Assembly (NCBI GenBank): GCA_039935735.1
Contig: JBDTJR010000010.1
Span: 1-52,931, forward strand
Length of the DNA stretch: 52,931 bases
Direction of reading: 5' to 3'
Source: Chthoniobacterales bacterium
Lineage (GTDB): Bacteria > Verrucomicrobiota > Verrucomicrobiia > Chthoniobacterales > JBDTJR01
Part shown: positions 27,131-51,947 of the stretch, in pieces
How the letters are laid out: every line of letters starts with the position of its first letter
Numbering within the stretch: the first letter of the stretch is position 1
Translations under genes and position numbers: made by a program
The notes under the pieces: generated by a model
What the model was told of the DNA's origin: nothing
Seen by the model: only the letters and a program-made list of their open reading frames with translations
Databases searched by the model: none

Positions 27131-27166
27131 AAACACGTGGGTATTTTTCCGCAACGTGTTTTCCCA
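27131..27166. promoter_or_regulatory. Inverted repeat AAACACGT-N15-ACGTGTTT, overlapping a partial copy (GTGTTTTCCCA) of the island element
   Basis: Arms at 27131-27138 and 27154-27161 are perfectly complementary. 27156-27166 resembles TTGTCTTTTCCCA of the three-copy motif. It sits just upstream of the promoter above. Confidence 0.3.
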
Positions 27167-36964: not shown

Positions 36965-37024
36965 GCGTGAATTTTTAAAGTTAGCACGTCTTCCCCTACG
37001 GTCAATATTGAGATCAATTTTCCT

Positions 37025-37990
37025 TCAGCGGGATTTCTCTATCGGCGTGTATTTGTCCGCCAATCGCCGCATTTCCCAGGTAAAATCCCGCCATTTCTTC
37101 TCCCACTCGGCAGCTTCCTCTGGAGTGTAGGCGTAAAAACCCCGTTGATTGGCAATACCCTTCGCTCCGCTCTCTGCAAGCTTCCTAAGGGTTTCAGGTG
37201 ACTTTTTGGCATCACAGAGCTCTGCCGCCAGCTCATCGAGAACCGAGTGATAAGCCGGAATCCCCGTCAAATCCACCCAGCGAAAAGGCCCTGCAATCGT
37301 GGCCCAGGAACCGATGTCATTGCGAAAGGACGCGTCAATATCCTCCACATTACCGATTCCATTTTCCAAAAGATACAAAGCCTCCCGCAGCATCGCGTAC
37401 CTCAGGCGATTGGTGATAAATCCCCGAATGTCCTTTTTAACAACCACCACATCCTTACCAACCGCGCGTCCAAGCGCAGCAGTCGTCTCCGCAGTGGTAT
37501 CCGAGGTCTGCTCTCCGCGAATCACTTCAAGAAAGCGAATGATATGGCACGGCTCGCCCCAATGCATGCCGATAAACCGCTCAGGATGCTTACGCCCCAT
37601 CTGCAACAGCGTTATGGGAAGCGCTGAGGTGTTGCTCGCAATAATAGCCGCCGGAGAAATTACCTTCTCCAGCAGCTCAAAAATCCCGCGCTTGTCCTCC
37701 AGACTCTCGACCGCACTTTCAATAACGAACGGACAATCCTTCAGTCCTTCAATATCCGGAGTAACCGTGAGGTTTTTCCTACCTGTCGCTGTAAGATCCG
37801 CGGATGCACCAAGGTTCTCAACCAACTCCTGTAAAGCGATGTCTACATGTTCCTTTGCAGCTTCTGCCGCTTCCTCACTCCGATCACAACCGATAACGCG
37901 GTAACCATGAGCCAGCAGGCAGGCCGCGATACCGCGCCCGAGCAAGCCCAGCCCTACGATTCCGATCGGTTGTTCCCGCGGTGGTTCCAT
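37025..37990 (-). CDS. 3-hydroxyacyl-CoA dehydrogenase family NAD-binding protein
   Basis: IGIVGLGLLGRGIA Rossmann motif, the SNTS signature and a C-terminal HADH helical domain. Confidence 0.85.
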   Translation of the reverse strand: MEPPREQPIGIVGLGLLGRGIAACLLAHGYRVIGCDRSEEAAEAAKEHVDIALQELVENLGASADLTATGRKNLTVTPDIEGLKDCPFVIESAVESLEDKRGIFELLEKVISPAAIIASNTSALPITLLQMGRKHPERFIGMHWGEPCHIIRFLEVIRGEQTSDTTAETTAALGRAVGKDVVVVKKDIRGFITNRLRYAMLREALYLLENGIGNVEDIDASFRNDIGSWATIAGPFRWVDLTGIPAYHSVLDELAAELCDAKKSPETLRKLAESGAKGIANQRGFYAYTPEEAAEWEKKWRDFTWEMRRLADKYTPIEKSR

Positions 37991-37999
37991 GACAGATGC

Positions 38000-38377
38000 C
38001 TACTTCTTGCAGGCGATCACATCGATCTCCACCTTGATCTCGCCCAGGCCGCTCTGCACGGTCGTACGGACGGGAAGAATAGTGCCCGCAAAAAACTTCT
38101 GATATGCCGCATCGAAACGGTCAAAATCATCAAAGTTTGCCAGGTGACAAGTGCTCTTAACAATATCGGCACGCGTGCAGCCCGCCTGTTTCAAAACGCG
38201 TTCCACGTTTTCCAACGTAAGCTGGGTCTCTTCTTCGATCGTGCCCTCCTTGTATTCGCCGGTCTGCATATCCAGCGAACCCTGGCCGCTGACGAATACA
38301 AATCCGTTAGCTTCGATTCCGGCGGAGTAACTGCCGGTGTTTGCGTCTTTGTTTGGATCTCTGATTTCTTTTTTCAT
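38000..38377 (-). CDS. ridA: RidA/YjgF-family reactive enamine/imine deaminase
   Basis: 125 aa. GFVFVSGQ, the ARTTVQ-like PVRTTVQ, and a terminal EIDVIA pattern. Confidence 0.9.
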   Translation of the reverse strand: MKKEIRDPNKDANTGSYSAGIEANGFVFVSGQGSLDMQTGEYKEGTIEEETQLTLENVERVLKQAGCTRADIVKSTCHLANFDDFDRFDAAYQKFFAGTILPVRTTVQSGLGEIKVEIDVIACKK

Positions 38378-38395
38378 AAAATTTATTTTTGAACT

Positions 38396-41179
38396 TTAAA
38401 AAAGGTCGTTACCTTTCAACAGGATCATCTCTACACCGCGAAGTGGAACTTTTACAGTCAGTTTCCCATTCGCAAATTCCGATATCAGGTTACCACTACG
38501 CACACCCGTGACACTCTCAGGTTTGTTGCGACATGCAATTTCCACCGTCACTGGATAAGGCTCAATAGTATCAAGATCGACATCCGTACTTAAAGGATTG
38601 GGATGCTTCCTTCCCAAATTACCCAATCCGTAATCGACAAGACCCACGGCGGAGGCGTCCTTGTTCACTGTAACACGTCCGCTGATCATGGTATCACTTA
38701 CCTTGACCGTTGAGGGCAAGGTCGTCGCTGGAAGCGTTGCAAATTCGCGTTGCGTTGCGTTTTGCGCCAGGATCGTTGGGAAAATATCCCGCAGGTTATG
38801 CTCATAAGTCGCACGCATGTAGCTTAATCCTGGAGCGAGTCCATATTGATAAACCACTCCCTGTCCTTTCTTCGTTTTGACAAGCGCAGGTGAACCATCT
38901 GAAAAAGTCGCAAGGATTTCTGTCTCTGCTTCCGGAGTAATCTTCGACTTCTGGCAGATCACCTCAATGGTCTTGCCGTTCCATATGACTTTATCGAGAG
39001 GAACAATCGCTCCGGCGTTCCCGATTCCTCCACGCAGGGCATCGTTTTTGACGGATTGAAGCCCTGCGATGCCGAATACCTTCGCACCACTGGTGACCGG
39101 TTCATCAAATTCATTGCGAACCTCCGGCACAGAACTCACCAGTGTACCGCCTTTATCAACATAGCCATCCAATGCGGACAGCGTCTCCTTGCGCATATCG
39201 GTACCAACTACAAAAAGCATCTGATAATCTTTTCCCATCCCATCAATGAGATCCTGCTCGGTTATGACATCGAGAGGAATTCCCGCATGCAGATATGCCA
39301 GATAAAGAGCCGCACATTTTTCATAAGCCGTGCGATCCCAAAGAATACACGAGCTGGGATAAACAATCGCTGCATGCGCTGGCTGCACCTTGCCACCTAC
39401 GACTACATTTTCAGCCAGCGCCAGTTCACGTGCAATTTTCGCGGCGCCCACAGCATTTTTTGGATTACAGATCCAACCGATTTCTCCACCTATAGGACTA
39501 TAAGGATAGAGAAAAAAGATCGTATTTCCCCGCATCAGGCGCTCGTAAAACTTAAAGAGATCGCGCGACGGAGCCGAGACGCCATCAAAGCCAAAGATAG
39601 GATAGTCGCCGATGGGAATATTCCGGTATTTTGCCTGCGACCGCATCTGCTCCGCATACCATGCCGTGATTCCCGCCCCTCCTGGTTCAATCTCAAGCCA
39701 GTCTTCGCCCCACACTACGCCTAAACCGGGGCGGCGATATAGCTCCCACAAATCAATGGTATTCCCCGTATAATATTCAAAACACGACCAGTTTACCTTT
39801 GAGAGAAGATGCGGATTCAATTCCGTAAAAATCTTCATCGAGCTATCCCAGAAATTGATCTGCTCATCCATCTGGAATTGACGGGACAATGTAGAAAGTC
39901 GTTTTTGCGATATATTGGGAGCAATGCACTTCACCTGCTCCCATGCTCCCACTCCGGCATCCTGTGGTGTGAGATTCCTTTTCTTCATCCACTCCACAAA
40001 AGTCGCATCCACGGCAGGAGTCTTCGGCAACTCCGTAAATCGTGGCTCGTCCGCGCCATTCACAAGTGTGGGAATCGCAATGTTCTTCACCGCGTCTGCA
40101 TTCTTGCGAATGATCGCTTCGATTTGTGGTGTAAAATGAAAGTCAGGAGCGTTGGCATAGAACGGCGCACTAAACAGCCCGTAAGTAGCGCCCATCGCCG
40201 CTCTATCGGATTCCAGTTCATCGAGAATGAAATTCCCATTAAGTCCGATTGCCCGCGCCATCTTGATTTCTGTATGCAGGGTATCGTAGTTAGGCTGATC
40301 GCGATTTTGAATCGATGCCGCAATGAACCATATTTTTTGCGGCACGGGACCTGTCAAACTTGCCTTTGCAAGAGCGTCAATGTTTTGTTGAAACATATCC
40401 TGGAGGGTTAACAGGGAAAAAGAACCGTCCACCGCAGGAACCATGAAACAATATTCCTTACAGGGTTTTGCTCCAACGACCTTGATTGCTTTAAGCGGTT
40501 TTTTGCCATCGGCATCCGCATAAAATTCGATGTCTGCATTCACAGAGTCGAGAAAAGAAAACGCCATGGTGCAGCGCTCGCGCACTTCCTGCGGAAAAGC
40601 GGCGACTACCGTGGCTTCGCCAGGTTTTAACTCTCCGGTCTTAGCATCGAATCCTGTAGGAGAGCCATATCCTATGTTAACTCCGGCTCCCATAGTCCGT
40701 ATAACGCCCACCGAGGCGCGAAGCACTTTATCTCCGTTATTTCGAATGCGAAAATAGATCACTGCATCCTGATTGCGAAAAGCCGCGATGTAGTTAGGAT
40801 CAGTGGTGGCAAACATCCCGTCAAACTTTGCTCCATCGAGAGGCTCCACCATGATAGAGGCAGGCCCGCCATCCGCCTCGCCCACCGGCATCACAGCTAC
40901 CGTCGTGCTTGCCAAAGGAACTGTCGAGATAACCGTGATCCACCCAAACGACGGGATCGTCACTTCCTGCTGTGTCGTGCCATTCTCCGTCTTGAAGCTT
41001 ATACGGAACTTCCCCTCTCCTCGCAGATGCGAGTAAACAGCGAATGGCGTATTTTTAACCGGTCCGGCAATCCATACGGAAGGCTTGTCGATGGCACGTG
41101 TCCAGTCGCCGACTTCGACCTCGGCAGCATGGAGCGAGAGACAAGTTAGAAGCAGTGTGAAGAGGTGGATTTTGCGCAT
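38396..41179 (-). CDS. Large secreted protein with a GH42-like (beta-galactosidase-type) central region and an uncharacterised N-terminal region of about 280 aa
   Basis: Signal peptide. The segment AAIVYPSS..W......YLAYLHAGIPLDVI....L....YQMLFVVG......L..LDGYVDKGGTLV closely follows the GH42 trimerisation (class-I glutaminase-like) domain pattern, with a TIM-barrel-sized region upstream. The family call is tentative. Confidence 0.5.
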   Translation of the reverse strand: MRKIHLFTLLLTCLSLHAAEVEVGDWTRAIDKPSVWIAGPVKNTPFAVYSHLRGEGKFRISFKTENGTTQQEVTIPSFGWITVISTVPLASTTVAVMPVGEADGGPASIMVEPLDGAKFDGMFATTDPNYIAAFRNQDAVIYFRIRNNGDKVLRASVGVIRTMGAGVNIGYGSPTGFDAKTGELKPGEATVVAAFPQEVRERCTMAFSFLDSVNADIEFYADADGKKPLKAIKVVGAKPCKEYCFMVPAVDGSFSLLTLQDMFQQNIDALAKASLTGPVPQKIWFIAASIQNRDQPNYDTLHTEIKMARAIGLNGNFILDELESDRAAMGATYGLFSAPFYANAPDFHFTPQIEAIIRKNADAVKNIAIPTLVNGADEPRFTELPKTPAVDATFVEWMKKRNLTPQDAGVGAWEQVKCIAPNISQKRLSTLSRQFQMDEQINFWDSSMKIFTELNPHLLSKVNWSCFEYYTGNTIDLWELYRRPGLGVVWGEDWLEIEPGGAGITAWYAEQMRSQAKYRNIPIGDYPIFGFDGVSAPSRDLFKFYERLMRGNTIFFLYPYSPIGGEIGWICNPKNAVGAAKIARELALAENVVVGGKVQPAHAAIVYPSSCILWDRTAYEKCAALYLAYLHAGIPLDVITEQDLIDGMGKDYQMLFVVGTDMRKETLSALDGYVDKGGTLVSSVPEVRNEFDEPVTSGAKVFGIAGLQSVKNDALRGGIGNAGAIVPLDKVIWNGKTIEVICQKSKITPEAETEILATFSDGSPALVKTKKGQGVVYQYGLAPGLSYMRATYEHNLRDIFPTILAQNATQREFATLPATTLPSTVKVSDTMISGRVTVNKDASAVGLVDYGLGNLGRKHPNPLSTDVDLDTIEPYPVTVEIACRNKPESVTGVRSGNLISEFANGKLTVKVPLRGVEMILLKGNDLF

Positions 41180-41194
41180 AAAATTCGTCCCGAT

Positions 41195-41227
41195 ACCTCA
41201 CCACTTTTGCGGAAAAAGGGATGAGGT
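41195..41227 (-). other. Intercistronic stem-loop between the PhyH-like and GH42-like genes
   Basis: Minus-sense RNA reads ACCUCAUCCCUUUU-UCCGC-AAAAGUGGUGAGGU: 14-position stem with 12 Watson-Crick pairs, 1 G-U and 1 mismatch. Pairing is better in the transcribed sense. No T-tract directly follows. Confidence 0.45.
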
Positions 41228-41244
41228 CGAGAACAAATTGCGCT

Positions 41245-42042
41245 CTATATCCCGTTGGGCTGTGTTGCTCCGCGCACCAGTGTATAACTACGTGCTTTTT
41301 TGCCGGGAAGGAGTCTGCAATGCGCGCTGGCATAGTGGACTTGAAGCGAGCGACGACGGGATCCGGAACGGTTTGTCGGAGTATAGTGAAAGACCCGACT
41401 CGAGAAAAGTAGGACATCTCCCGGCTCCATTGGTAAAGCCACCTTTTCAAAGTGCTCCATGAATTCAGGACTTATAACCTTGTGCGGCGTACCTTCTTTT
41501 TGCGCATGGTCTACCACCGGTAGGCGATGCGTTCCCGGCCATACAAACATACATCCGTTCTCCTCAGTCGCACGATCAAGCGCCCACCAGGTACCAACAA
41601 CCTGATCGAACGGTTCGATTTCGAAATACGCTGCGTCCTGATGAAGCGGTTTTTCAGATCCGATGAAAGGAGGCTTAATTAACGCCATATCTTGAAGAAC
41701 TTTTATGTCCTCTCCGAGCAACGATACGAGCGCTTCGGAGACAGACGCGTTTTTTACGAGTCTCAGAAAGCGATCATCGCTGGAAGCTTTCTGGTGAAAA
41801 CCACGTACGGCCAGCAATCGCTCTTCATCTGTAAGAGCTTCGGGTTTCCGGTTTTTGAGAATTTCCTCTTCATAGGAAACTTCCAGAGGATGTTTTATGA
41901 TATAGTCATCGATTGACTCTTTTGCGAATTCAACCGTTTCAAGATCAACGAGCCCGCGAACTACAAGATAACCCTGCTGGTGATAATCAGCGACCTGTTG
42001 GGCTGTTAGCGTACCGTAAGGAGATAAGGATTTTGCCTTCAT
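41245..42042 (-). CDS. Phytanoyl-CoA dioxygenase (PhyH) family Fe(II)/2-oxoglutarate oxygenase
   Basis: YHQQGYLVVRGL N-terminus, HQDAAYF (HxD) and a distal His in FSSRVFHYT. Confidence 0.8.
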   Translation of the reverse strand: MKAKSLSPYGTLTAQQVADYHQQGYLVVRGLVDLETVEFAKESIDDYIIKHPLEVSYEEEILKNRKPEALTDEERLLAVRGFHQKASSDDRFLRLVKNASVSEALVSLLGEDIKVLQDMALIKPPFIGSEKPLHQDAAYFEIEPFDQVVGTWWALDRATEENGCMFVWPGTHRLPVVDHAQKEGTPHKVISPEFMEHFEKVALPMEPGDVLLFSSRVFHYTPTNRSGSRRRSLQVHYASAHCRLLPGKKARSYTLVRGATQPNGI

Positions 42043-42074
42043 GGTTCATACACTATCAGAATGCGCTCTGCTGA

Positions 42075-42109
42075 CCATGCCGGAGCCGCTCAGCTATTGT
42101 CTTTTCCCA
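42075..42109 (-). promoter_or_regulatory. Copy C of the bipartite island element, abutting the AraC stop and upstream of the PhyH-like gene
   Basis: The plus strand reads CCATGCCGGAG-N10-ATTGTCTTTTCCCA. The distal block is 14/14 identical to copies A and B, the proximal block matches 8/11, and the block starts are 21 bp apart as in A and B. Confidence 0.5.
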
Positions 42110-42973
42110 TCACCGGTTCGATGTGCGGAAATGCCCGGGAGTACTGCCCGCAACTTTCTTAAACTGACGACAAAAATGCGCTGTCTCGCGGTACCCCAGA
42201 TCAGCCGCAATCGCTTCCACCGTATAGGGCGACTCCAGCAAGAGCAACTTCGCCCGTTCCATCCGACGATGAAGAAAAAATTGCTTGGGAGATTTACCAA
42301 AACATACCTGCATCCGGCGTCTGAATGTATTGGCGGAAATGCCACACATCCGGGCAAGCTTCTCCGTGCTGGGATCAAGCTCTCCCGTTTGCATGGGATA
42401 AGTCAGGGCAGGAATGAGATCCTGATAGGAAATGGGCGCAGTCTGTAAGTCATCACTGTGCCCGTCCTCACGAATCAACCAAAGAATCGACCTCAGTAAA
42501 TTATTGCTCAGGTTATCATGAGTCGGGGAAAGCAACATCCCTGCACGGATGGCACGCGGTGAAATCGAATTGGTCACGCGTAACATCAATTGCTCAAGAA
42601 GAGGGAACCCGGAGACTTCCATACAAATCTTTGTTCGAAAAGTGGCAGGCAGACTCACTTTATTCCCCTTGGAATTTTGCAACTCGAAACGCACGACCGA
42701 AGTGACGAGAGGCTTCCGTTCGTTGTGGGTGATGCCATAAGTCTCACCCGGTATGCCAAAGAGCAAACTGCCGCGCCGTAATTTGTAGGAACGGTCGGGA
42801 CAAGCCACTTCGCCAAGCCCTGCTCTCACCAGGAGAAGACGGTAATCAGGCCATGCGCGATAAGGAAGCACCCAGCCGCGGCCGCACTTGGAGCTGCTTG
42901 AAACAACAATCTTTAAACTTAATCTGGAAAGCTCCTGTCTGGCTTTGCGTGCGGGAATATTCCGCGTGGTCAT
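42110..42973 (-). CDS. AraC-family transcriptional regulator (cupin-like sensor plus dual HTH)
   Basis: The C-terminal region SANTFRRRMQVCFGKSPKQFF...LGYRETAHFCRQFKKVAGSTPGHFR is a canonical AraC/XylS HTH region. Confidence 0.85.
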   Translation of the reverse strand: MTTRNIPARKARQELSRLSLKIVVSSSSKCGRGWVLPYRAWPDYRLLLVRAGLGEVACPDRSYKLRRGSLLFGIPGETYGITHNERKPLVTSVVRFELQNSKGNKVSLPATFRTKICMEVSGFPLLEQLMLRVTNSISPRAIRAGMLLSPTHDNLSNNLLRSILWLIREDGHSDDLQTAPISYQDLIPALTYPMQTGELDPSTEKLARMCGISANTFRRRMQVCFGKSPKQFFLHRRMERAKLLLLESPYTVEAIAADLGYRETAHFCRQFKKVAGSTPGHFRTSNR

Positions 42974-43034
42974 GCGAGCAGCATAAAGAACCGTGCCGCG
43001 GATACCATTTAAAAAGCATCTTTAGCGGCAAGTC

Positions 43035-43820
43035 TTACAGCCAACGTATGATATCACCCCGAGAATCGAGCTTGCAACGAATCGTTCGTGCATCCACGCG
43101 TTCGACTCCCATACGAGCAGCATAGCCATCAGCCATATCGCTCCGATAGAATGTAAGCTCTGCCGTTATAGGAAGTTTTGGCTTAAAGGGCGAAAAGGAT
43201 TTTGCGTTCGATACCGCACGTTTTGCGGTTTTACGAATAATGTCGTGGGCTTTTTCAAGAGAGAGACATTTCGCCTTATTACGACATACCCCCCATTTAA
43301 CGACGGCGGTTTCCACTTTCCCGAGAGTCGCTTTAGCCTCGATCCCCGTTGTCCCATCTCCAGAAACCATGATTACCGGGACATCGAAATGCCCTGCGTA
43401 GGTCGCTTCGATCCCGATTTCTCCCACGACTTTTCCGTTGATGCGGAATTCGAACCATTCCCCGGAATTCATTGTATGATCGAGGAAGCCATTGATCGTC
43501 CCCGCTTTCGCGTGATGTCCGATAAGAATAACGCCGTCGAACGACTTATCCAGTGACGGCATGAGATTTCCCGGCCATATAGGAAGCTCATAAATTGCCC
43601 GAGGATCCATCTCAGCAATCCGCACCTGTCCACCACCGGCATGAGTGTCCGTCACAACCACCTCGGTAGCGCCGCCGGAAAAAGCACCATCGATTGCCGC
43701 ATTGATATCCCACATCATCAGCTTACGGCCTTCTTCATACTCTGGAGAAGCACTTTGCACCTGCGGCCATGTGCGAATGCCCGAGATACCTTCCATGTCC
43801 GCGAGAATGTAAATTTTCAT
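43035..43820 (-). CDS. M55-family D-aminopeptidase (DppA-type)
   Basis: MKIYILADMEGISGI N-terminus, VVVTDTHAGG and GHHAKAG match the Bacillus DppA-type peptidase M55. Confidence 0.85.
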   Translation of the reverse strand: MKIYILADMEGISGIRTWPQVQSASPEYEEGRKLMMWDINAAIDGAFSGGATEVVVTDTHAGGGQVRIAEMDPRAIYELPIWPGNLMPSLDKSFDGVILIGHHAKAGTINGFLDHTMNSGEWFEFRINGKVVGEIGIEATYAGHFDVPVIMVSGDGTTGIEAKATLGKVETAVVKWGVCRNKAKCLSLEKAHDIIRKTAKRAVSNAKSFSPFKPKLPITAELTFYRSDMADGYAARMGVERVDARTIRCKLDSRGDIIRWL

Positions 43821-43838
43821 AGTATGTGAATTAAATGC

Positions 43839-44699
43839 TTACTGCGCGAGTTCGTGACAACGCTTCAGATGCGCAAGATCGTCGCGTATCTGATCCGGCG
43901 TACAACCCGTCGGGATATGATGGTTTTCGTTGCTTACCCATCCATCATAACCCACTGCCTTAAATGCCTTGAAAACCGTAATCCAGTTTACAAATCCCGC
44001 TTTCATTTCAGCGGTATCGCGTTGCCATAATACGCCACCACTTTCCGTAGCTCCGCGGGCGGTAAGTCGCGCATTCTGGGCGTGGCAGTAAGCAAGATAA
44101 GGGCCGAGCAGTTCACAGCCCATCTGCCAGTTTTCAAAACCCTCCATTGCCATATTACCAGGATCATACATTACGGCCATGTGCTTCGGGTCGAGTCCAT
44201 CGAGGAGTCGATGTGCCAGCGAGGCAGATGGCGTGAGGCTACCGGCATGAAGTTCGAGTAATCCCTGAACTCCGGCGTCTTTGCACAAATCTGCAGCACG
44301 GGAAAAGTCCGCACGAGCGGTTTTGTACAACTCATGATAATTTGCCTGAGCGCGATACCATGTGCCACAGATTCGCAAACGTGGAGAGCCAAGTGCTTTC
44401 GCGATTTCGATAGAGACCTTCACGTCGTCGGGATCGTTCGCCTGACAGTAGGTGGCGAGGTTTGAAAACTCCAGCCCATTATTGCTCATGATACGTTTGT
44501 ATTCGGGAACAACTTTTTTCCAATTCTTTACATCGAGAGTTGTGCGATTGCTGCCCCAGAGATTGGGAATCAGAGGAAGTTCATCGGGTTGTGCGAGACA
44601 GCGCCACTCCACACCATCGTAACCGGCCTCCTTGATGAGTTTCGCAGCTTCGTCCGGCTTACACTGTGGAAGTGTCAAAGAAAAGAGTGAGTATTTCAT
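43839..44699 (-). CDS. Sugar phosphate isomerase/epimerase (xylose-isomerase-like TIM barrel)
   Basis: GYDGVEW, LRICG, LELHAGS, YDPGN and SNENHH patterns are typical of the family. Confidence 0.8.
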   Translation of the reverse strand: MKYSLFSLTLPQCKPDEAAKLIKEAGYDGVEWRCLAQPDELPLIPNLWGSNRTTLDVKNWKKVVPEYKRIMSNNGLEFSNLATYCQANDPDDVKVSIEIAKALGSPRLRICGTWYRAQANYHELYKTARADFSRAADLCKDAGVQGLLELHAGSLTPSASLAHRLLDGLDPKHMAVMYDPGNMAMEGFENWQMGCELLGPYLAYCHAQNARLTARGATESGGVLWQRDTAEMKAGFVNWITVFKAFKAVGYDGWVSNENHHIPTGCTPDQIRDDLAHLKRCHELAQ

Positions 44700-44727
44700 G
44701 ATAATTTTTAAATGGGTGATGGTGAAT

Positions 44728-45819
44728 TTAGATCCACGGGCAAAGTTTGCGGCATTTTTCCAGAACGGCGATTTGTCTTTGGATGCTTTCAGGCGTGACT
44801 ACAAGAGGAGTGCCTTTTTTGAGGGTCTTATATAAATCCTGGTAGAAAGGAATGTATTGAACCGGTTGATCCGGCGGAAGGGTCCATTTCTCTTCCGTCC
44901 AGTCATACTGTTCTGAATTGTAACTCCGGTCGGGAGTCGGCTGACGATCCACGGGGCGCGCGGGCAGTTTTGAGAAATCGACATATTTCCATGTGAGTTC
45001 TTTTTGAGTTCCAGTGAGTCCTCCCTCGGTCCCCATGACATGCCACATGTTCTGTGGGAAGGCGCAGCTTTTTGTGATTTCCACATCCACCACGGGTGCA
45101 CCTTCGGCACGTAGGACAACCTTCACATGATCTTCTGCATCGCCACTGGTGAGCGTACGATCAAGATGACAGAAAATTTCAGGTTCCGTGGAACCAAAAA
45201 ACTGCAACCCCTGGTCAATAAAATGCGCGCCGGAATTATTTAGTTCACCGCCGGAAAATTCCTTGAGAGTTTGCCAATCCCAGCGTCGGCCAAAACCATG
45301 AATGCAGATGCGGATCTGAACAATGCGGCCCAGTTTACCACTGGCAATAACCTCACGTAACTTTACAAAACTTGGCATGTAGCGATTTTGCTGAAAGCCT
45401 GTGAGCACTTTGCCCGCAGCTTTTGCGGCCTTCATCATTTGTGTGGCTTCGTCGCTGGTTGAGGAGAGCGGCTTTTCACAGATGACATTTTTATTCGCGG
45501 AAAAGGCTTGTAACGCCTGTTCGTAATGAAAGCGGCTGGGCGTTGCGAGCACTACGAGATCCACTTCGTTATCGGCAAGGAGAGACTCCAAATTTTCGTG
45601 AGCGCGACAACCGAATTTCGCGACAGCCTCCTGGCGACGTTCCTCGCTCTGATCGGTAACCGCAACAACCGCAAACTGCTCCGGCATACCCGCTAAGGTC
45701 AGCGCATGGATCGCCCATCCGCTTCGTCCCAGACCGACGATACCAACACGAACGGTATCATTCGTAATATGAGAATGGCAGTCCTTTGATTTTGCTTCAG
45801 AAATAGCTACTTCGCTCAT
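44728..45819 (-). CDS. Gfo/Idh/MocA-family NAD(P) oxidoreductase
   Basis: VRVGIVGLGRSG Rossmann motif, EKP (ICEKPL) signature and C-terminal alpha/beta domain. Start set to ATG 45819 (MSEVAIS), which leaves the conserved element intergenic; the track's 45927 start overlaps the upstream gene. Confidence 0.85.
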   Translation of the reverse strand: MSEVAISEAKSKDCHSHITNDTVRVGIVGLGRSGWAIHALTLAGMPEQFAVVAVTDQSEERRQEAVAKFGCRAHENLESLLADNEVDLVVLATPSRFHYEQALQAFSANKNVICEKPLSSTSDEATQMMKAAKAAGKVLTGFQQNRYMPSFVKLREVIASGKLGRIVQIRICIHGFGRRWDWQTLKEFSGGELNNSGAHFIDQGLQFFGSTEPEIFCHLDRTLTSGDAEDHVKVVLRAEGAPVVDVEITKSCAFPQNMWHVMGTEGGLTGTQKELTWKYVDFSKLPARPVDRQPTPDRSYNSEQYDWTEEKWTLPPDQPVQYIPFYQDLYKTLKKGTPLVVTPESIQRQIAVLEKCRKLCPWI

Positions 45820-45844
45820 AGTCCCTACCCTAATGCGCCGGGCC

Positions 45845-45888
45845 ACAAAAGCCATGTCGCAACGATCTATGAATTGTCTTTTCCCACC
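45845..45888 (-). promoter_or_regulatory. Copy A of the bipartite island element, upstream of the Gfo/Idh/MocA gene
   Basis: The plus strand reads ACAAAAGCCATGTCGCAA-N10-ATTGTCTTTTCCCACC, identical to copy B at 33 of 34 conserved positions. It ends 26 nt from the ATG. Confidence 0.55.
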
Positions 45889-45904
45889 ACTGAGGAAAAG
45901 ACGA

Positions 45905-46795
45905 CTAGAGAGCGGCTTTCGTTTCAAGAAGCTTTTTTAGACCGTCGCTGTAGACTTTATCCATCTCAGCACTTGTGAAAGCACGGTCCGTGAAAAAACC
46001 AAAATCATCCACCTCGCCACCTGCTTCGAGATTGTAAAAAGCCGCAATGACGGCATCTCCGGTAGCCGCAGAAATACTCGTAGGGCCATCGACCCCGGTC
46101 TCCTGAGTGGCGATGGGAAGTCCATTCACGTAAAAAACCATTTTTCCCTCATCAAACGTCATTCCCATTTGAATCCATATCCCCTGAAGAACGGAATTAA
46201 AGCGCGGCGAACGAAAGGTAACGCGGCCTTTGCCTGCGGGGAAAAAATTGAAAAAGAGCGCCTTATATTCCTCACTGTATCCAAAAGAAAAGAATCCCTC
46301 ACCTGCACCTGCGGATCCGCGACCAACACTCCATAAAAGGTAGCCCGGTGGAAAACCGAGAGGCTGCACCATATTGTTTGGAGTATTTTCACGGGCAGAC
46401 TCCGGACGCGGAGCGTTGCGACGCATGAAAATATAAAATCCTTTTGTCGAATTAGGAGGACGAATCCACGCCGTGATCGTCATCTTATGGAGCTCACCAT
46501 TGAAAGCCGCAGAAGCGGAGGCAAGCCCAGCGCGGGGGGCGCGTCCCCAGTTTGTCTGCGCCTCACTTTTGCCCTCTTCTGGAAGCTCGATCACCATACA
46601 GCCGCTACCGAATTTCGGATCGTCAGCCGTCTGATGCGTTTTTCCGACATAGTGAAGAACAAGTGCCCCGGAGATGGAATTCGTTGGAGCTGCCGGATCG
46701 CGGTTATCGTCGAAGTAATAAACATTATCAACAGCACACGCCACGTCCACTGTGAGAATCAGCATACAAAGAGAAAATGGGAGGACTTTCATCAC
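45905..46795 (-). CDS. Secreted LamG (Laminin_G_3 / ConA-like) protein, paralog A
   Basis: Signal peptide. Blocks DNVYYFDDNRDPAAPTNS, PKFGSGCM, HKMTITAWIRP, WIQMGMTFDEGKMVFYVNGLP, VDDFGFFTDRAFTSAEMDKVYSDGL. Carries a central insertion of about 40 aa relative to B-D. Confidence 0.8.
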   Translation of the reverse strand: MMKVLPFSLCMLILTVDVACAVDNVYYFDDNRDPAAPTNSISGALVLHYVGKTHQTADDPKFGSGCMVIELPEEGKSEAQTNWGRAPRAGLASASAAFNGELHKMTITAWIRPPNSTKGFYIFMRRNAPRPESARENTPNNMVQPLGFPPGYLLWSVGRGSAGAGEGFFSFGYSEEYKALFFNFFPAGKGRVTFRSPRFNSVLQGIWIQMGMTFDEGKMVFYVNGLPIATQETGVDGPTSISAATGDAVIAAFYNLEAGGEVDDFGFFTDRAFTSAEMDKVYSDGLKKLLETKAAL

Positions 46796-46804
46796 TGGGG
46801 AATA

Positions 46805-47578
46805 TTAGGGAGAAGATTTTGTTTTGAGAAACTCATCCAGCCCGTTGTTGTAAATTTTCTCAATATCCGCTGCAGAAAGCACACGATCTGTGAAAAGCCC
46901 GAAGTCATCGACATTACTGCCTCGCGGAAGATTGTAAAATCCCTCCAAAACTGCAGCCGCCTTTATCTCAGGAATGAAGACATTCCCCAGATCAGTTCCA
47001 CCAACAGGAAGCCCATTAATATAAAAAGCGACCTTCCCCTCATTGAAAGTCATAGCCATATGCATCCATTCACCTCCAAGCACACATAAAAACTTATCAG
47101 AATTAATGCCGTAGAATTTTCTGTCTTTTCCGACGAAAGAAAAGGAATAACAATTATAAGGCGTCGGAAAATAACGAAACAGCATCGTGCCCTCAGGAGC
47201 GGGATAGGCAATGCGACTGAGAACGCAAAGCTCCCTCGAAGTAAGAGAGGGGCGAATCCATGTCACCACGCTCATTTTATGAATGGCTCCGTTCCATTCA
47301 TTGAGGAGCGAGGTGAAGCCTGCATGATGCTGAAGCTTGTCCGCAGGATCACCCATAACCTCCATACTCCCCTGACCGAACTTATGCTGTGTAGTGGTCT
47401 GACGCGTATCGGCGTTAAAATGCATCGCCTGTGTTGCGCCGCCCGAGTTCGCAGGCACGGTCGGATCCGCATTATTTTCAAAGAAATAATAAAGATTGAA
47501 ATCAGGTGCCGCTACGGCCACTCCCGTTAAAAGAAAAATCAGGCAAATACAAAAAAGACGGATCATGAGTGCAAACAT
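46805..47578 (-). CDS. Secreted LamG (Laminin_G_3 / ConA-like) protein, paralog B
   Basis: About 70% aa identity to paralog C by eye. Start taken at ATG 47578, overlapping C's stop as TGATG; the track's 47581 start is TTG. Confidence 0.8.
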   Translation of the reverse strand: MFALMIRLFCICLIFLLTGVAVAAPDFNLYYFFENNADPTVPANSGGATQAMHFNADTRQTTTQHKFGQGSMEVMGDPADKLQHHAGFTSLLNEWNGAIHKMSVVTWIRPSLTSRELCVLSRIAYPAPEGTMLFRYFPTPYNCYSFSFVGKDRKFYGINSDKFLCVLGGEWMHMAMTFNEGKVAFYINGLPVGGTDLGNVFIPEIKAAAVLEGFYNLPRGSNVDDFGLFTDRVLSAADIEKIYNNGLDEFLKTKSSP

Positions 47579-48336
47579 CAATGAGAAGGCTTCGTTTTAA
47601 GAAACTCTTCCAGACCGTTGTTGTAAATCTTTTCAATATCCGTAGCGGAGAGTGCGCGATCCATGAAAAGTCCAAAATCATCGACATAGCTTCCACGTGG
47701 AAGACTGTAAAATCCCTCAAGCCGAGCAGGCTCTTTTATTGCAGGAATGAAGGCAATCCCCACATCGCCACTTCCAGCCGGCAGACCATTTATATAATAA
47801 ACGATTTTTCCTTCGTCAAAGGTTACAGCCATGTGCACCCATTCATCTGCCAGCACACATAAAAACCGGTCCGAAAGTACGTAGTGATTTTGATTATTAC
47901 TGATGAAGGAAAGGGTTAAATAATTATAGGGTGTCTGAATATAACGAAGCAGAATAGTGCCATCTGGAGCGGGGTAGGTAATGCGGCTCAGAATGCCAAT
48001 CTCCTGTGAAGTAATAGAAGGGCGGATCCATGTCACCACACTCATCTTGTGGATAGCGCCACTCCACTCATTCGGAAGTGAAGTGAAACCGGCGGGATGT
48101 TGACGGATTTCGGCAGGATCACCCACAACTTCCATGCTTCCCTTGCCGAATTTATGCACCGAGGTGGTTTGACGCGTATCGGGATTAAAATGCATCACCT
48201 GTGTTGCGCCACCCGAGTTCGTTGGCAACGCTGGATCCACATTATCTTCAAAGAAGTAATAAAGGTTTGAATCCGCCGCGATGGCCATTGTGCCCACGAG
48301 AAGAAGAATCAGACAAAGATATGATGAGCGGATCAT
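47578..48336 (-). CDS. Secreted LamG (Laminin_G_3 / ConA-like) protein, paralog C
   Basis: Signal peptide. Blocks SNLYYFFEDNVDPALPTNSGGA, HKFGKGSM, HKMSVVTWIRP, WVHMAVTFDEGKIVYYINGLP, VDDFGLFMDRALSATDIEKIYNNGL. Confidence 0.8.
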   Translation of the reverse strand: MIRSSYLCLILLLVGTMAIAADSNLYYFFEDNVDPALPTNSGGATQVMHFNPDTRQTTSVHKFGKGSMEVVGDPAEIRQHPAGFTSLPNEWSGAIHKMSVVTWIRPSITSQEIGILSRITYPAPDGTILLRYIQTPYNYLTLSFISNNQNHYVLSDRFLCVLADEWVHMAVTFDEGKIVYYINGLPAGSGDVGIAFIPAIKEPARLEGFYSLPRGSYVDDFGLFMDRALSATDIEKIYNNGLEEFLKTKPSH

Positions 48337-48357
48337 GGGTGTATCGGATAAGAAGCC

Positions 48358-49128
48358 TTAGGAACCGGGAGAAGCTTTAAGAAAAGCCTTCAGGCCATTC
48401 GTATAGACGGCGTCCATTTCTTTTTCCGTAAGAGCGCGATCCATAAAAAATCCGACATCATCCACATAACTACCGGGCGCAAGCGTTGTGAACATGGAAA
48501 CAAAACTGTCAGGTTCCTGCATGGCGGGAATAAACTTCATGTCCGGCGCTTCTGAATGTCCAACCGGCAGACCATTTATATACATAACTGCCTTCCCCTC
48601 ATCAAAAGTCACCGCGAAGTGCAGCCATTCTCCCTGAAGGATACAATTTACTATCGGTCCCGTGATACCGATCCGCACACCCTGTCCCGCAGCGCCAAAG
48701 AAAAAGCATCGATAAGCAATGGAGTAGTCTATCCCAATATAGCCCGGTTTCAGACCAATCGGCACATTGCGAATGAGAATATGAAAGTCCTTGCCAGTAG
48801 CGGCGGGACAAATCCATGCAGTGATCGTCATTTTATGAATTTCACCACAGAAAGCTCCCGGCGCAGCTAAAAGCCCTCCGCGAAACCCTTTTCCCGGAGC
48901 ATCATTTTTCCCGATAAACATACTGCCCGTTCCAAACTTAAACTTTTTATCGGTCTGATGGGTTTTCCCGATATACTGCATGATCTCTGTAGATCCGTTG
49001 GAATTCGTCGGCACGGCAGGATCCTTATTATCGTCGAAGTAATAATAGATATTTGAACCTGCAAGCGCGACAGAGACCGTAAAATTAGCTGTCAGAGCAA
49101 GGAATAGAAAATATTTCAAAAAGCGCAT
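48358..49128 (-). CDS. Secreted LamG (Laminin_G_3 / ConA-like) protein, paralog D
   Basis: Signal peptide. Blocks SNIYYYFDDNKDPAVPTNS, FKFGTGSM, HKMTITAWICP, WLHFAVTFDEGKAVMYINGLP, VDDVGFFMDRALTEKEMDAVYTNGL. Confidence 0.8.
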   Translation of the reverse strand: MRFLKYFLFLALTANFTVSVALAGSNIYYYFDDNKDPAVPTNSNGSTEIMQYIGKTHQTDKKFKFGTGSMFIGKNDAPGKGFRGGLLAAPGAFCGEIHKMTITAWICPAATGKDFHILIRNVPIGLKPGYIGIDYSIAYRCFFFGAAGQGVRIGITGPIVNCILQGEWLHFAVTFDEGKAVMYINGLPVGHSEAPDMKFIPAMQEPDSFVSMFTTLAPGSYVDDVGFFMDRALTEKEMDAVYTNGLKAFLKASPGS

Positions 49129-49253
49129 GCTGGCAGCAAATGAATATTTGATCGTAGGCCCCTTTTAAAAGGATATTTTTAGAAGATTTTTAGGCTTCAC
49201 CATAGGAAAATAAGCAGCCTAAGACCGACAAGTTAGCCGGGCAGTAACGATTT

Positions 49254-50654
49254 TCATACTAAATCGAGAAAAGGAATTACGCCAAATGGTGCTGTGTTGA
49301 CACTGCTCAACTGGATAATTCCATTTTGAATTCTCACGGTGGGCCAGCCTTGATTACCCAACTGATAAAGATCCGGATGCGATTCCAATATTTGCTTTTG
49401 AATGACAGGAGAGCATGAAGAAAGCCCTGCAAAGTAATGGTGACCATTTCGTTCTACACTTTTATTTCCGAGTGCGGCTTGTACTGCGAGGTCTTGAAGC
49501 AATGCTACGGGACCTATATTGGACAGGTCCTCCCCGCTCATGATAAACGAAGTGGAAGAATTGGAATCGCTGCGTTTTTTAGCCAATAGACACGCATTGG
49601 CTATTCCGTGAAAAACGCCTTTACAGTTTTTGTGGCTCACTCCGGCATATCCCAACTCTAAAGCGCGAGGCAAAGAGGCAATCTCCGCATCGGACTCGTC
49701 GATAATAATGGGGGGCCGTTCTCGCCACGAGAGCATTGATTGCCCGACTTCCTCGCTTAATGCAAAATCACGATGAAAAGGCTGTTCGACAAACAGAAGT
49801 TTTTGCAGAAATTCGCGTAATCCTGAGTCCTCCTGAATAAGCGACCAAAAGTGACGAAATTGTCCGACATCAGAAAAGCTCTCGTTTCCATCGAGGCTAA
49901 TCTCAGGCACGACCCCGCATGACTCCATGACGGCACATATTTTTTGCAATCTCGCCATGCTCGCTTTGACATCCGAAGTGATTTTAATTTTTAGCTGACG
50001 AATGCCGTATTGGTAAACACAGGCTTCCAGGGATTGCGGTAATCCGTCATCCAATCTTTCGCTAGAAGGAATTTCCTTTTCAAAAAGAGGATCGGAAAGC
50101 CCGACAGTGTGGCGACAGAAAACTTCTTGAAGTGGAGCAACAGGCAGCCAGTCCGAGGGAGCGCTACCAGCCAACTCTGAATGCATTTCTTCCAGATTAA
50201 TTCGAAAAGCATTTTCCCGAAGAAGACGATGAAAAGGTTTTTTTTGACTCCGACAAAATGCGTCGATCAGCGCACGCTCGATGAGCGAAACCCCAAATTG
50301 ACATAGAAGAGGTGGCCATCCCTTCTCTCTGCCCCATGCGGCTTGCTTTTCATAGAGCGCTTTCCATAGGGAAAAAACGTCATTACCCTCCATTCCGCGA
50401 GCCAGTTCTGCGGCATGCTGAATAACCTCCAGCATATCGTCAATCTCCTCAATCGGGTCTCGATGCGGGTCTTTGGTAAACCATTTGGGAGGTAAGTGAT
50501 CCGCCGCGATGCCACGGCAGGAGATCTCATTGATTTCGCATTCCATCTCGACAAAAAGATGTGGCAGCTCTGTAAGTACTGCAATGCCGTATCGAAAAGG
50601 CATTCGCGTGCGAAGCTCCACCCGATGGAGAGAAATCTGTGCTATACGGATCAT
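49254..50654 (-). CDS. Enolase-superfamily enzyme (MLE / dipeptide-epimerase-like subgroup), unusually long at 466 aa
   Basis: Ordered catalytic set: K222-x-K224 (LKIKI, 49983-49991), D255 (SLDGNE), E290 (FVEQP), D319 (IIDESD), K342/K345 (SHKNCKG). Spacing is 35/29/23-26 residues, close to known MLE-subgroup members. Confidence 0.6.
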   Translation of the reverse strand: MIRIAQISLHRVELRTRMPFRYGIAVLTELPHLFVEMECEINEISCRGIAADHLPPKWFTKDPHRDPIEEIDDMLEVIQHAAELARGMEGNDVFSLWKALYEKQAAWGREKGWPPLLCQFGVSLIERALIDAFCRSQKKPFHRLLRENAFRINLEEMHSELAGSAPSDWLPVAPLQEVFCRHTVGLSDPLFEKEIPSSERLDDGLPQSLEACVYQYGIRQLKIKITSDVKASMARLQKICAVMESCGVVPEISLDGNESFSDVGQFRHFWSLIQEDSGLREFLQKLLFVEQPFHRDFALSEEVGQSMLSWRERPPIIIDESDAEIASLPRALELGYAGVSHKNCKGVFHGIANACLLAKKRSDSNSSTSFIMSGEDLSNIGPVALLQDLAVQAALGNKSVERNGHHYFAGLSSCSPVIQKQILESHPDLYQLGNQGWPTVRIQNGIIQLSSVNTAPFGVIPFLDLV

Positions 50655-50723
50655 TACAAGATGCGAGGACTAGCTTCAGAAGTGGCAAATTCGCTCATAG
50701 TCTTTATCTTAAGACATCTCGCG

Positions 50724-50767
50724 ACAAAATCCATGTCGCAATGTCATCGACATTGTCTTTTCCCACC
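50724..50767 (-). promoter_or_regulatory. Copy B of the bipartite island element, upstream of the enolase-superfamily gene
   Basis: The plus strand reads ACAAAATCCATGTCGCAA-N10-ATTGTCTTTTCCCACC. It lies in the 141-bp gap between the XylR-like regulator stop and the enolase-like start, 70 nt from the ATG. Confidence 0.55.
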
Positions 50768-50795
50768 CAGGAGAAATAGAAGTTTCAGGACTTTA

Positions 50796-51947
50796 TTAGA
50801 CGATGAGATGGCGAAATCGTGCACGATATTCTCCCGGAGTCGCCCCAACTTTTTCACGAAAGAGTTTTGTCATATAGGGAATACTTAGGAAGCCGCTTGC
50901 TTCGGCGATCTCGTAGAGCTTCATGGAGGTGGAATGCAAGAGGTGCTGGACGCGTTCTATCTTCAATAGCTGGATCACTTCGCCAATAGTGTAGCCAAGA
51001 CACTCGTGAAATCGACGCTCCAGCGTGCGACGAGACATGGGAACGTGTTTGAATATCTGCGGAAGGAGGGTGACTTCATTCAGGTGGGCGCGGATGAACT
51101 CGATGGCGCTGTTCACATGCTTATCGCGTGTCATGAGTGCGTTTGCGGATTCGCGCTGAATGACTCCACCGGGCGCGATGAGAATAGGACTTATCGGAGG
51201 AGCTTCACCCTCCAGCAAGCGCACCATTAATGCAGCCGCTTCATAACCGATACGCTCCGGCCTCGGCTCTATACTCGTAATACCGGGGTGCCGGGTCTTG
51301 CAGAAAAACTCATCATTCCCATAACCCACGATACCCACCTCCTTGCCAATTTCGATATCAAGTGCTTCGCAGGCATTGTAAACCTGATAGGCATCGCGGT
51401 CACTTACACAGAATATTCCCACCGGCTTCGGAAGATGGGCAATCCAGCGCTGCAGATTTTTCTGTTGTACAAGGTTGATCATCTCATCGAAGTTTTTCAT
51501 AGAATCGAGATGCATTGCGCATTTAAAACCCGCCTCAAGGATTCCTTTTTTAAAGCCGACGCGACGCAAGACATGCTGGTTTCCTTTAATGGAGCCGTAA
51601 CATCCGAAGTTATGAAACCTGCATTTCAGCAGATGCTCGGCAGCCATGCGACCACCAGTTTCGTTATCGCTGATCGCTGATGGCAAGCCAAGAGGCTTGA
51701 GCGCGCTGGACATATTCACTACAGGCACACCGTGAGAACGCACCGTGCGTATCAAAGAAAGCTTCGTCGCGAGAAAGATAATGCCTTTGAGGGTTTTTCG
51801 TGGATGAATGAAGGGTTCGCCAAAAGTGAGCGCCAGCTCGAAGTTCCTGCCATTTTCGGAAAAATAATCAATGATACCCTGATAGACCAACCGGGTAAAA
51901 CGACCATCGGGATCAAGGACAATATAAATGCACGGACGTTTCCGCAT
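50796..51947 (-). CDS. XylR-type regulator: periplasmic-binding-protein-like sugar sensor domain fused to an AraC-family HTH
   Basis: The N-terminal two-thirds have a LacI/PBP-type fold pattern (GIIFL, VPVVN, GIFCVSD, VGIVGYGND). The C-terminus PMSRRTLERRFHECLGYTIGE...GFLSIPYMTKLFREKVGATPGEYR is an AraC HTH. ATG 51947 is preferred over the track's TTG 51998. Confidence 0.85.
   Translation of the reverse strand: MRKRPCIYIVLDPDGRFTRLVYQGIIDYFSENGRNFELALTFGEPFIHPRKTLKGIIFLATKLSLIRTVRSHGVPVVNMSSALKPLGLPSAISDNETGGRMAAEHLLKCRFHNFGCYGSIKGNQHVLRRVGFKKGILEAGFKCAMHLDSMKNFDEMINLVQQKNLQRWIAHLPKPVGIFCVSDRDAYQVYNACEALDIEIGKEVGIVGYGNDEFFCKTRHPGITSIEPRPERIGYEAAALMVRLLEGEAPPISPILIAPGGVIQRESANALMTRDKHVNSAIEFIRAHLNEVTLLPQIFKHVPMSRRTLERRFHECLGYTIGEVIQLLKIERVQHLLHSTSMKLYEIAEASGFLSIPYMTKLFREKVGATPGEYRARFRHLIV

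Follow-up and report, generated by a model that had tools for sequence, protein, structure and literature searches.

The window analysed here is a stretch of 52,931 nt from a Chthoniobacterales bacterium, and its relatives place it in the Verrucomicrobiota, near Chthoniobacterales metagenome-assembled genomes (MAGs). A cluster of genes runs along its minus strand in the order XylR-like regulator, enolase-superfamily (enolase-like) gene, four LamG_3 genes, Gfo/Idh/MocA oxidoreductase (Gfo), xylose-isomerase-like TIM barrel protein (TIM), D-aminopeptidase (M55), AraC-family regulator of 287 amino acids and, from a PhyH dioxygenase onward, a GH42M-like protein of 927 amino acids, RidA, 3-hydroxyacyl-CoA dehydrogenase (3HCDH) and M19 dipeptidase. 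The gene names given in a first-pass annotation of the window agree with Pfam, and NCBIfam assigns no specific function to any of the cluster enzymes (enolase-like, GH42M-like, TIM) nor to the LamG proteins. A bipartite element stands in three of the gaps of this cluster: copy 1 between the XylR-like and the enolase-like genes, copy 2 between the last LamG_3 gene and Gfo, and copy 3 between the AraC and PhyH genes. What is this element, which protein reads it, and why are there three copies of it?

Anatomy of the element

The 14-mer TGGGAAAAGACAAT occurs exactly at 50752-50765, 45873-45886 and 42096-42109, always on the minus strand, and has no other exact occurrence in the window. With up to three mismatches allowed, 13 sites are found against 5.9 expected, a count reached in none of 100 shuffles. 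The 18-mer proximal pattern TTGCGACATGGNTTTTGT is exact at 50724-50741 and 45845-45862 (0.13 expected), and TTGCGACATGG-N-TTTTGT is found twice, in copies 1 and 2. Copy 1 (50724-50767, minus strand) reads GGTGGGAAAAGACAAT-GTCGATGACA-TTGCGACATGG-A-TTTTGT. Copy 2 (45845-45888, minus strand) has the same blocks around the spacer TCATAGATCG, and copy 3 (42075-42111, minus strand) reads GATGGGAAAAGACAAT-AGCTGAGCGG-CTCCGGCATGG, its distal 16-mer sharing two bases with the stop codon of the AraC gene. Most of what the first-pass annotation said of these copies stands on reading the sequence: copies 1 and 2 are identical at 33 of 34 conserved positions, the 10-nt spacer between their blocks is not conserved (2 of 10 positions identical), copy 3 matches at 14 of 14 positions in the distal block and 8 of 11 in the proximal one, and all three copies lie between open reading frames. 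Two further look-alikes that it listed, at 27156 and 52017, do not survive. With a 37-nt position weight matrix (PWM) trained on six close instances, the three copies reach 44-51 bits, the next best site of the 52.9-kb window reaches 10.4 bits, and both look-alike regions fall below 0; reading the sequence there agrees.

How are the blocks arranged? The distal half-site (tGGrAAAnkrCmAw, here GGTGGGAAAAGACAAT) is followed 20 bp on by a second half-site that ends in GRCATGG, and this in turn by about 19 nt of unconserved DNA, a TAnnnT hexamer, 6-9 nt and the start codon. The block starts, which had been placed 21 bp from each other, are 26 bp apart (16 + 10). The direct repeat with a 20-bp period that had been described along with them is recovered by self-similarity: the first 16 nt, compared at offsets of 12-29, give 85 matches at offset 20, 73 at offset 25 (the next best) and 21-60 at the others. 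The element is thus a tandem direct repeat. The repeat is clearest in L296, one of the related loci (denoted by L and a number), where the half-sites are TGGAAAGTGCC and TGGAAAGGGCA; those of copies 1 and 2 in the window have only GACA(W) in common. Copies 1 and 2 also carry a dyad, which neither copy 3 nor the orthologous Gfo promoters of L001 and L304 have. The TTTTGT block of the first-pass annotation owes its presence to this dyad, which may be a second, candidate operator. An inverted repeat of 7 bp, CAATGTC-GAT-GACATTG (50742-50758, minus strand), is peculiar to copy 1 and reaches across the distal block, the spacer and the proximal block; this hairpin was set aside as incidental, being without conservation in copy 2.

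The element in related genomes

The closest relatives of the 287-amino-acid AraC protein, 63% and 61% identical, are encoded in two Chthoniobacterales MAGs, each on a syntenic contig. The DNA that separates the AraC and PhyH genes there reads TGA-TGGAAAAAGACAAT-TCGTGAGAGG-TTAGGGCATGG-20 nt-TAAGGT-6 nt-ATG in L098 and TGA-CACAAAAAGACAAT-CGCTGAAAGG-TTAAGGCATGG-20 nt-TACGGT-7 nt-ATG in L099, with the module spacings of the window kept in both. Six further AraC orthologues (L296/L297, L298, L299, L300, L301, L302), 48-55% identical, are followed by gaps of 67-123 nt (67-75 except in L300) and then by a PhyH or a GH42M/DUF4838-like gene. These distant gaps read [nnGrAAAnkGCmAn]-[nGCTGAnnGG]-[nnnnG-GCATGG]-~20 nt-[TCATAT / TAATTT / TAGAGT / GAGACT]-7-9 nt-ATG; the weakest match is L299 (CCCTGG, AACAAT), and in L300 the called start lies far downstream of the box. 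The module thus stands directly after the stop codon of the AraC orthologue in eight other Verrucomicrobiota contigs (orthologues 48-63% identical), and the intergenic DNA that flanks it on these contigs is not conserved. The Gfo promoter is kept as well in the two closest MAGs, with the module at position 2179 of L001 (GGTGGGAAAAGACAAT ... GGGCATGG ... TAGGAT-9-ATG) and at position 346 of L304 (GGTGGGAAAAGGCAAT ... GAGACATGG ... TAGGAT-9-ATG). Phylogenetic footprinting, which the first-pass annotation had proposed as a check, therefore finds the module at orthologous positions, and on this comparison the tandem repeat is co-inherited with orthologues of the 287-amino-acid AraC gene across nine genomes. 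By the same comparison, GGCATGG, the form in the proximal block of copy 3, is the ancestral one, as in the orthologues.

How far does the element extend beyond these loci? A second PWM, built from 11 instances, was run over the 3.24 Mb of sequence collected. Among its 45 best sites (lowest 17.1 bits), untrained sites in loci that had not been retrieved through the DNA pattern fall in AraC-orthologue loci only, and none of the 45 lies in the protein-match loci (L002-L080, L100-L178). One untrained site, in L298 (8877-8913, minus strand, 30.6 bits), stands between a sulfatase gene and a gene for a protein of 805 amino acids. Another, in L296 (7075-7111, plus strand, 25.1 bits), lies upstream of the operon that holds the AraC orthologue, which suggests autoregulation. 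An exact-pattern scan of genome contigs returns one real relative, L001, and a degenerate scan of genome contigs, matching at least 118 stretches, gives only L001 and L290 (the L098 contig) as real among the matches listed, both from the closest MAG. The exact-pattern scan of metagenome contigs gives 17 matches; with wrong flanks, without a -10 box and of unrelated GC content, all of them are put down to chance. A related-locus search with the AraC protein led to nothing but unrelated genes of the AraC family, from Firmicutes and Bacteroidota. The motif was not found in the 79 enolase-based loci other than L001, whose orthologues are all more distant (48-57% identity), so it is lineage-restricted.

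Why, then, does the window have three copies? Because, it seems, one of them was duplicated. The similarity between copies 1 and 2 goes beyond the blocks: it spans 108 nt at 73% identity (45794-45901 versus 50673-50780), runs through the ATG and about 10 Gfo codons, and covers GACTATGAGCGAA and TTCTGAAGC (start codon plus about 10 Gfo codons). The two closest MAGs (L001, L304) carry the element before Gfo, downstream of an enolase-like gene whose own upstream region is different, which points to copy 1 as a recent promoter duplication. We infer that the Gfo promoter was duplicated along with the first ~10 codons of the gene to give copy 1, and that the enolase-like gene thereby came to stand behind a Gfo-type promoter. 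Judged by these relatives, the enolase-like promoter of L001 and L304 is a different one, which copy 1 replaced in the window. Upstream of that gene the two loci (L001 690-732; L304 1779-1830, minus strand) have TAAGAT/TAGGAT-TCAAGTC in common, about 20 nt before the ATG. Since Gfo codons were copied along with the promoter, translation of the enolase-like gene would proceed by coupling to an upstream open reading frame (uORF) of 14 codons, and the overlap of the two reading frames in TAATG suggests translational coupling.

Table 1. Parts of the element and genes of the cluster, with positions in the window
Feature	Position	Strand	Remark
Element parts: AAAAGACAAT, GRCATGG, dyad arms (copies 1, 2), TAnnnT box			
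Copy 1, distal half-site GGTGGGAAAAGACAAT	50752..50767	-	about -69..-54 if +1 = ATG 50698
Copy 1, proximal block TTGCGACATGG	50731..50741	-	half-site ends GACATGG at about -34
Copy 1, -10-like hexamer TAAGAT	50706..50711	-	7 nt before ATG
Copy 1, dyad GCGACA-N7-TGTCGC	50721..50739	.	perfect; within copy 1
Copy 2, distal half-site GGTGGGAAAAGACAAT	45873..45888	-	
Copy 2, proximal block TTGCGACATGG	45852..45862	-	
Copy 2, -10-like hexamer TAGGGT	45827..45832	-	7 nt before Gfo ATG (45817-45819)
Copy 2, dyad	45842-45860	.	one mismatch; within proximal block
Copy 3, distal half-site GATGGGAAAAGACAAT	42096..42111	-	overlaps AraC stop codon
Copy 3, proximal block CTCCGGCATGG	42075..42085	-	
Copy 3, -10-like hexamer TAGTGT	42050..42055	-	7 nt before PhyH ATG (42040-42042)
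14-codon uORF MSEFATSEASPRIL (then stop)	50654..50698	-	from duplicated Gfo 5' end; TAA overlaps enolase-like ATG (TAATG)
XylR-like regulator	50796..51947	-	Peripla_BP_3 + AraC-type helix-turn-helix (HTH_18), Pfam
Enolase-superfamily gene, 466 amino acids	49254..50654	-	MIRI start kept in orthologues
Four tandem LamG_3 paralogues	45905-49128	-	signal peptides
Gfo/Idh/MocA oxidoreductase	44728..45819	-	real start ATG 45819; first of Gfo-TIM-M55-AraC
AraC-family regulator, 287 amino acids	42110..42973	-	cupin-like AraC_binding + HTH_18; proposed binder
PhyH, GH42M-like, RidA, 3HCDH, M19 dipeptidase run	35888..42042	-	would be served by copy 3

Predicted promoter, candidate regulator and rival readings

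A canonical -35/-10 pair is absent from all three copies, and none of them has a canonical -35 hexamer. In about 10 of 13 instances GRCATGG is followed 19-20 nt on by a TAnnnT hexamer, which stands 6-9 nt ahead of the ATG. If the A of the ATG is assumed to be +1, this -10-like box occupies -13 to -8, the proximal half-site -49 to -34 and the distal one -69 to -54; the proximal half-site takes that place only if TAnnnT is the -10 box and +1 lies near the ATG. Since the -10-like box lies 7 nt from the ATG, the transcripts probably have no leader or almost none. A published survey marks leaderless bacterial genes by a TANNNT some 10-12 bp ahead of the start codon, without a Shine-Dalgarno sequence (PMC3160421). 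The element has the hexamer in common with these TA-led genes, and the genome is Shine-Dalgarno-scarce; the main text of that survey makes no mention of Verrucomicrobia. Some Verrucomicrobia have been reported to be Shine-Dalgarno-scarce (PMC10783764). Elsewhere in the window, a near-consensus TAGAAT stands exactly 6 nt before the ATG at the gene starts 13294 (minus strand) and 14454 (plus strand), which are further leaderless candidates.

Which protein would bind the half-sites? The product of 42110-42973 matches HTH_18 (1.2e-21), HTH_AraC and AraC_binding, and, of the regulators, its gene alone accompanies the element in every genome examined. The NCBIfam models for named AraC-family regulators such as AraC, RhaS and HpaA all score this protein far below their cut-offs (38 bits against the AraC equivalog, with a cut-off of 208). 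The first-pass annotation had pointed to two AraC-family regulators encoded nearby; both are present, but as candidates they are unequal, the XylR-like one being the weaker, with relatives that are only ~50% identical and paralogue-like. A covariation of the recognition helices (SANTF versus SSSTF, ETAHF versus EPGHF) with GAC versus TGC half-sites was considered and rejected as imperfect, P0005 breaking it.

As far as conservation in sequence can tell, the element is a real, conserved cis-regulatory module. On balance it is probable that each copy is an activator-dependent sigma-70-type promoter with an upstream operator for the 287-amino-acid AraC regulator of the cluster. Two subunits of this regulator would probably bind the tandem half-sites, the effector presumably being an intermediate of the glycoside/peptide-catabolic cluster, and the promoter-proximal subunit would contact RNA polymerase at the -35 position. 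This contact would activate the PhyH-GH42M-RidA-3HCDH-M19 unit, the Gfo-TIM-M55-AraC unit (a positive autoregulation) and the uORF-enolase(-LamG) unit. From the observed anatomy and conservation of the element we infer AraC binding, activation, the transcription start and leaderless translation. The first-pass annotation had proposed an AraC/XylS operator of a small local regulon, and this fits all the in-silico evidence, with the correction that the three copies are not independent.

Several points weigh against this reading. Copies 1 and 2 are, on the comparison above, the outcome of one duplication event and hence not independent, and the instances in other genomes are phylogenetically related, so counts of them are not independent either. 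Within the pair of copies 1 and 2 alone the clustering of identities is modest (P=0.12 for the longest run, 0.015 for the top three); the case for function must therefore rest on the other genomes. The proximal half-site of copies 1 and 2 retains only GACATGG and carries instead the dyad GCGACA-N7-TGTsGC, which a direct-repeat model for AraC leaves unexplained. Copy 1 has an AraC-type regulator gene, the XylR-like one, immediately upstream, and a XylR-like gene is also found close to the homologous cluster of L304. Finally, the TARGRT hexamers of the closest genomes could serve as weak Shine-Dalgarno sequences, which would put the transcription start upstream.

Is the XylR-like protein (50796-51947) then the binder, either of the element itself or of the dyad in copies 1 and 2 besides AraC, giving double control? 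Its gene ends 28 nt before copy 1 and its product has an AraC-type helix-turn-helix (HTH). In L304 a 53% relative adjoins a LamG-LamG-enolase-[element]-Gfo cluster, and the 185-nt divergent gap between the XylR-like and LamG genes there holds, at 3690-3750, three GCGACA/TGTCGC hexamers (~0.1 expected). The confinement of the dyad to copies 1 and 2, away from copy 3, L001 and L304, would suit such a second input, but it counts as a single evolutionary event, copy 1 being a duplicate of copy 2. For the XylR-like protein there is no clear orthologue but a large number of paralogue-like relatives of ~50% identity, whereas the neighbouring enzymes are 72-76% identical. Its gene is missing from most loci with the element and does not stand next to it in L001/L098, L296, L298, L299, L301 or L302; the element goes with the small AraC gene instead. 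Control by the XylR-like regulator thus seems unlikely.

It is likewise doubtful that promoter and operator are rightly recognized but that TARGRT is a weak ribosome-binding site, in which case transcription would start upstream, the leaders would be short and the blocks would sit at other positions. The hexamers of the closest genomes are indeed purine-rich (TAAGAT, TAGGGT, TAGGAT, TAAGGT), and L099 has GGTGATC, complementary to the 3' end of 16S rRNA. But the GC-rich relatives have TCATAT, TAATTT and TAGAGT at the same place, and such hexamers are not purine-rich (TCATAT, TAATTT), which argues for a -10 box over a Shine-Dalgarno sequence. The conserved positions are T1, A2 and T6, as in a -10 box, an alternative upstream -10/-35 pair is not detectable, and Shine-Dalgarno sequences are rare, most genes of the window having none.

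Two further explanations of the blocks fare worse than the AraC-dependent promoter. It is most improbable that they are recognition elements of an alternative sigma factor, either of the extracytoplasmic function (ECF) type or sigma-54: GGGAAA resembles ECF -35 motifs (e.g. GGAAC) and L302 encodes an ECF sigma/FecR pair close to its AraC-PhyH pair, but GGAAA to GCATGG measures 22 nt, too long for -35/-10, the GG-N10-GC register of the sigma-54 pattern TGGCAC-N5-TTGCW is by inspection not kept across copies, a separate TAnnnT box stands at a fixed distance, and the two blocks are direct repeats of each other; by their spacing, both sigma readings were ruled out. Nor is there much to be said for the copies as non-functional remnants of segmental duplication, a small dispersed repeat or a cis-acting RNA. 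Remnants would account for the 108 nt that copies 1 and 2 share at 73%, a divergence similar to that of the adjacent LamG tandem duplicates, and for the weak significance of the block pattern in this pair alone, but not for an element kept at orthologous positions where the proteins are only 50-75% identical. A dispersed repeat, found mostly inside genes or at random places, was one outcome that the first-pass annotation had named as fatal to its proposal. The scans of the window, of genome contigs and of metagenome contigs show no scattered copies: the element is absent from genes, its three copies in the window all lie in gaps, and elsewhere there were only the chance metagenome matches and, among the genome-contig matches listed, L001 and one locus of the same MAG. 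A cis-regulatory RNA was ruled out, Rfam giving no match at gathering or E<=1 thresholds and RNAalifold no conserved fold (consensus -0.2 kcal/mol, 0 compensatory pairs).

Does each copy then open a transcription unit of its own? The clean split into three units drawn in the first-pass annotation is not borne out, as no terminator-like sites lie between the units. Copy 3 directly adjoins the stop codon of AraC, and 16 nt separate copy 2 from a LamG stop codon; with no terminators and with copies this close to stop codons, read-through from upstream is likely, and copies 2 and 3 are best seen as putative internal regulated promoters. The enolase-like gene is separated from the first LamG gene by 125 nt of AT-rich DNA (49129-49253), in which a weak hairpin resembling a terminator stands at 49215-49227; the LamG array may thus be transcribed from a promoter of its own. 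The LamG_3 paralogues are ~75% identical in DNA over 300-nt stretches and have an N-terminal motif in common, (N/D)xYY(F/Y)F(D/E)DN.DP..PTNS. The number and position of the array vary among related MAGs (none in L001, three in L099, two in L304).

Known systems and biological meaning

The predicted arrangement has several counterparts among characterized promoters. The half-sites of Pm, the XylS-dependent promoter of the TOL plasmid, lie at about -70 to -56 and -49 to -35, matching -69 to -54 and -49 to -34 for the element if +1 is the ATG. Both have two homologous direct-repeat half-sites of ~15 bp, and in both the proximal site abuts the -35 region of an activator-dependent promoter, in the element by prediction. 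The half-site sequences are unrelated, however (TGCA-N6-GGNTA in Pm versus tGGrAAAnkrCmAw), the period is 21 bp in Pm and 20 bp here, the regulator of the cluster is only a distant family member, and the transcripts here are probably leaderless. XylS itself places one monomer on each of its two 15-bp direct repeats (PMC5481539). MtlR of Pseudomonas fluorescens uses, at PmtlE, an operator of at least 37 bp upstream of the -35 box, with 15-bp blocks at -72 to -58 and -50 to -36 (PMC4514859). In length and position this is nearly identical to the element (37 nt, -69 to -33 if +1 is the ATG); the sequence and the regulator subfamily differ, and the MtlR site was footprinted whereas that of the element is predicted. 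The I1-I2 half-sites of AraC at the pBAD promoter of Escherichia coli are also tandem direct repeats, the proximal one overlapping -35. The likeness extends to a regulator with a cupin-type sensor and a double HTH, but no distal O2-type looping site was found, though no search aimed at one was made, no CRP site is evident at the element, and by its score the cluster regulator stays far from the AraC equivalog.

A bolder account joins these observations: in the window lineage the AraC regulon would have been enlarged when a leaderless promoter and the ~10 codons behind it were copied to the front of a second operon; the first gene of that operon, the enolase-like one, would be expressed through a leaderless, 5'-terminal uORF of 14 codons by termination-reinitiation at TAATG; and the copied promoters would also have acquired the dyad for the XylR-like regulator. 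This is speculative, and we hold it for conceivable rather than likely; if true, promoter duplication would have produced a switch with two inputs in a Shine-Dalgarno-scarce Verrucomicrobium.

What does the element mean for the biology of these bacteria? Most likely it is a gene switch of an ordinary kind, here in an uncultured lineage. As the proposed mechanism is textbook AraC/XylS biology, its value lies in annotation and comparison, not in concept. To our knowledge, almost nothing has been established experimentally on transcription-factor sites and promoter architecture in free-living, Chthoniobacterales-like Verrucomicrobiota. For these the element gives a concrete predicted operator consensus, tGGrAAAnkrCmAw twice, 20 bp apart, with a putative cognate regulator family and conserved core targets (a PhyH-type dioxygenase or a GH42M/DUF4838-like protein). 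It is also sequence-level evidence for a possible use of leaderless transcripts in such organisms, and it would provide a clear example of how a regulon grows by promoter copying.

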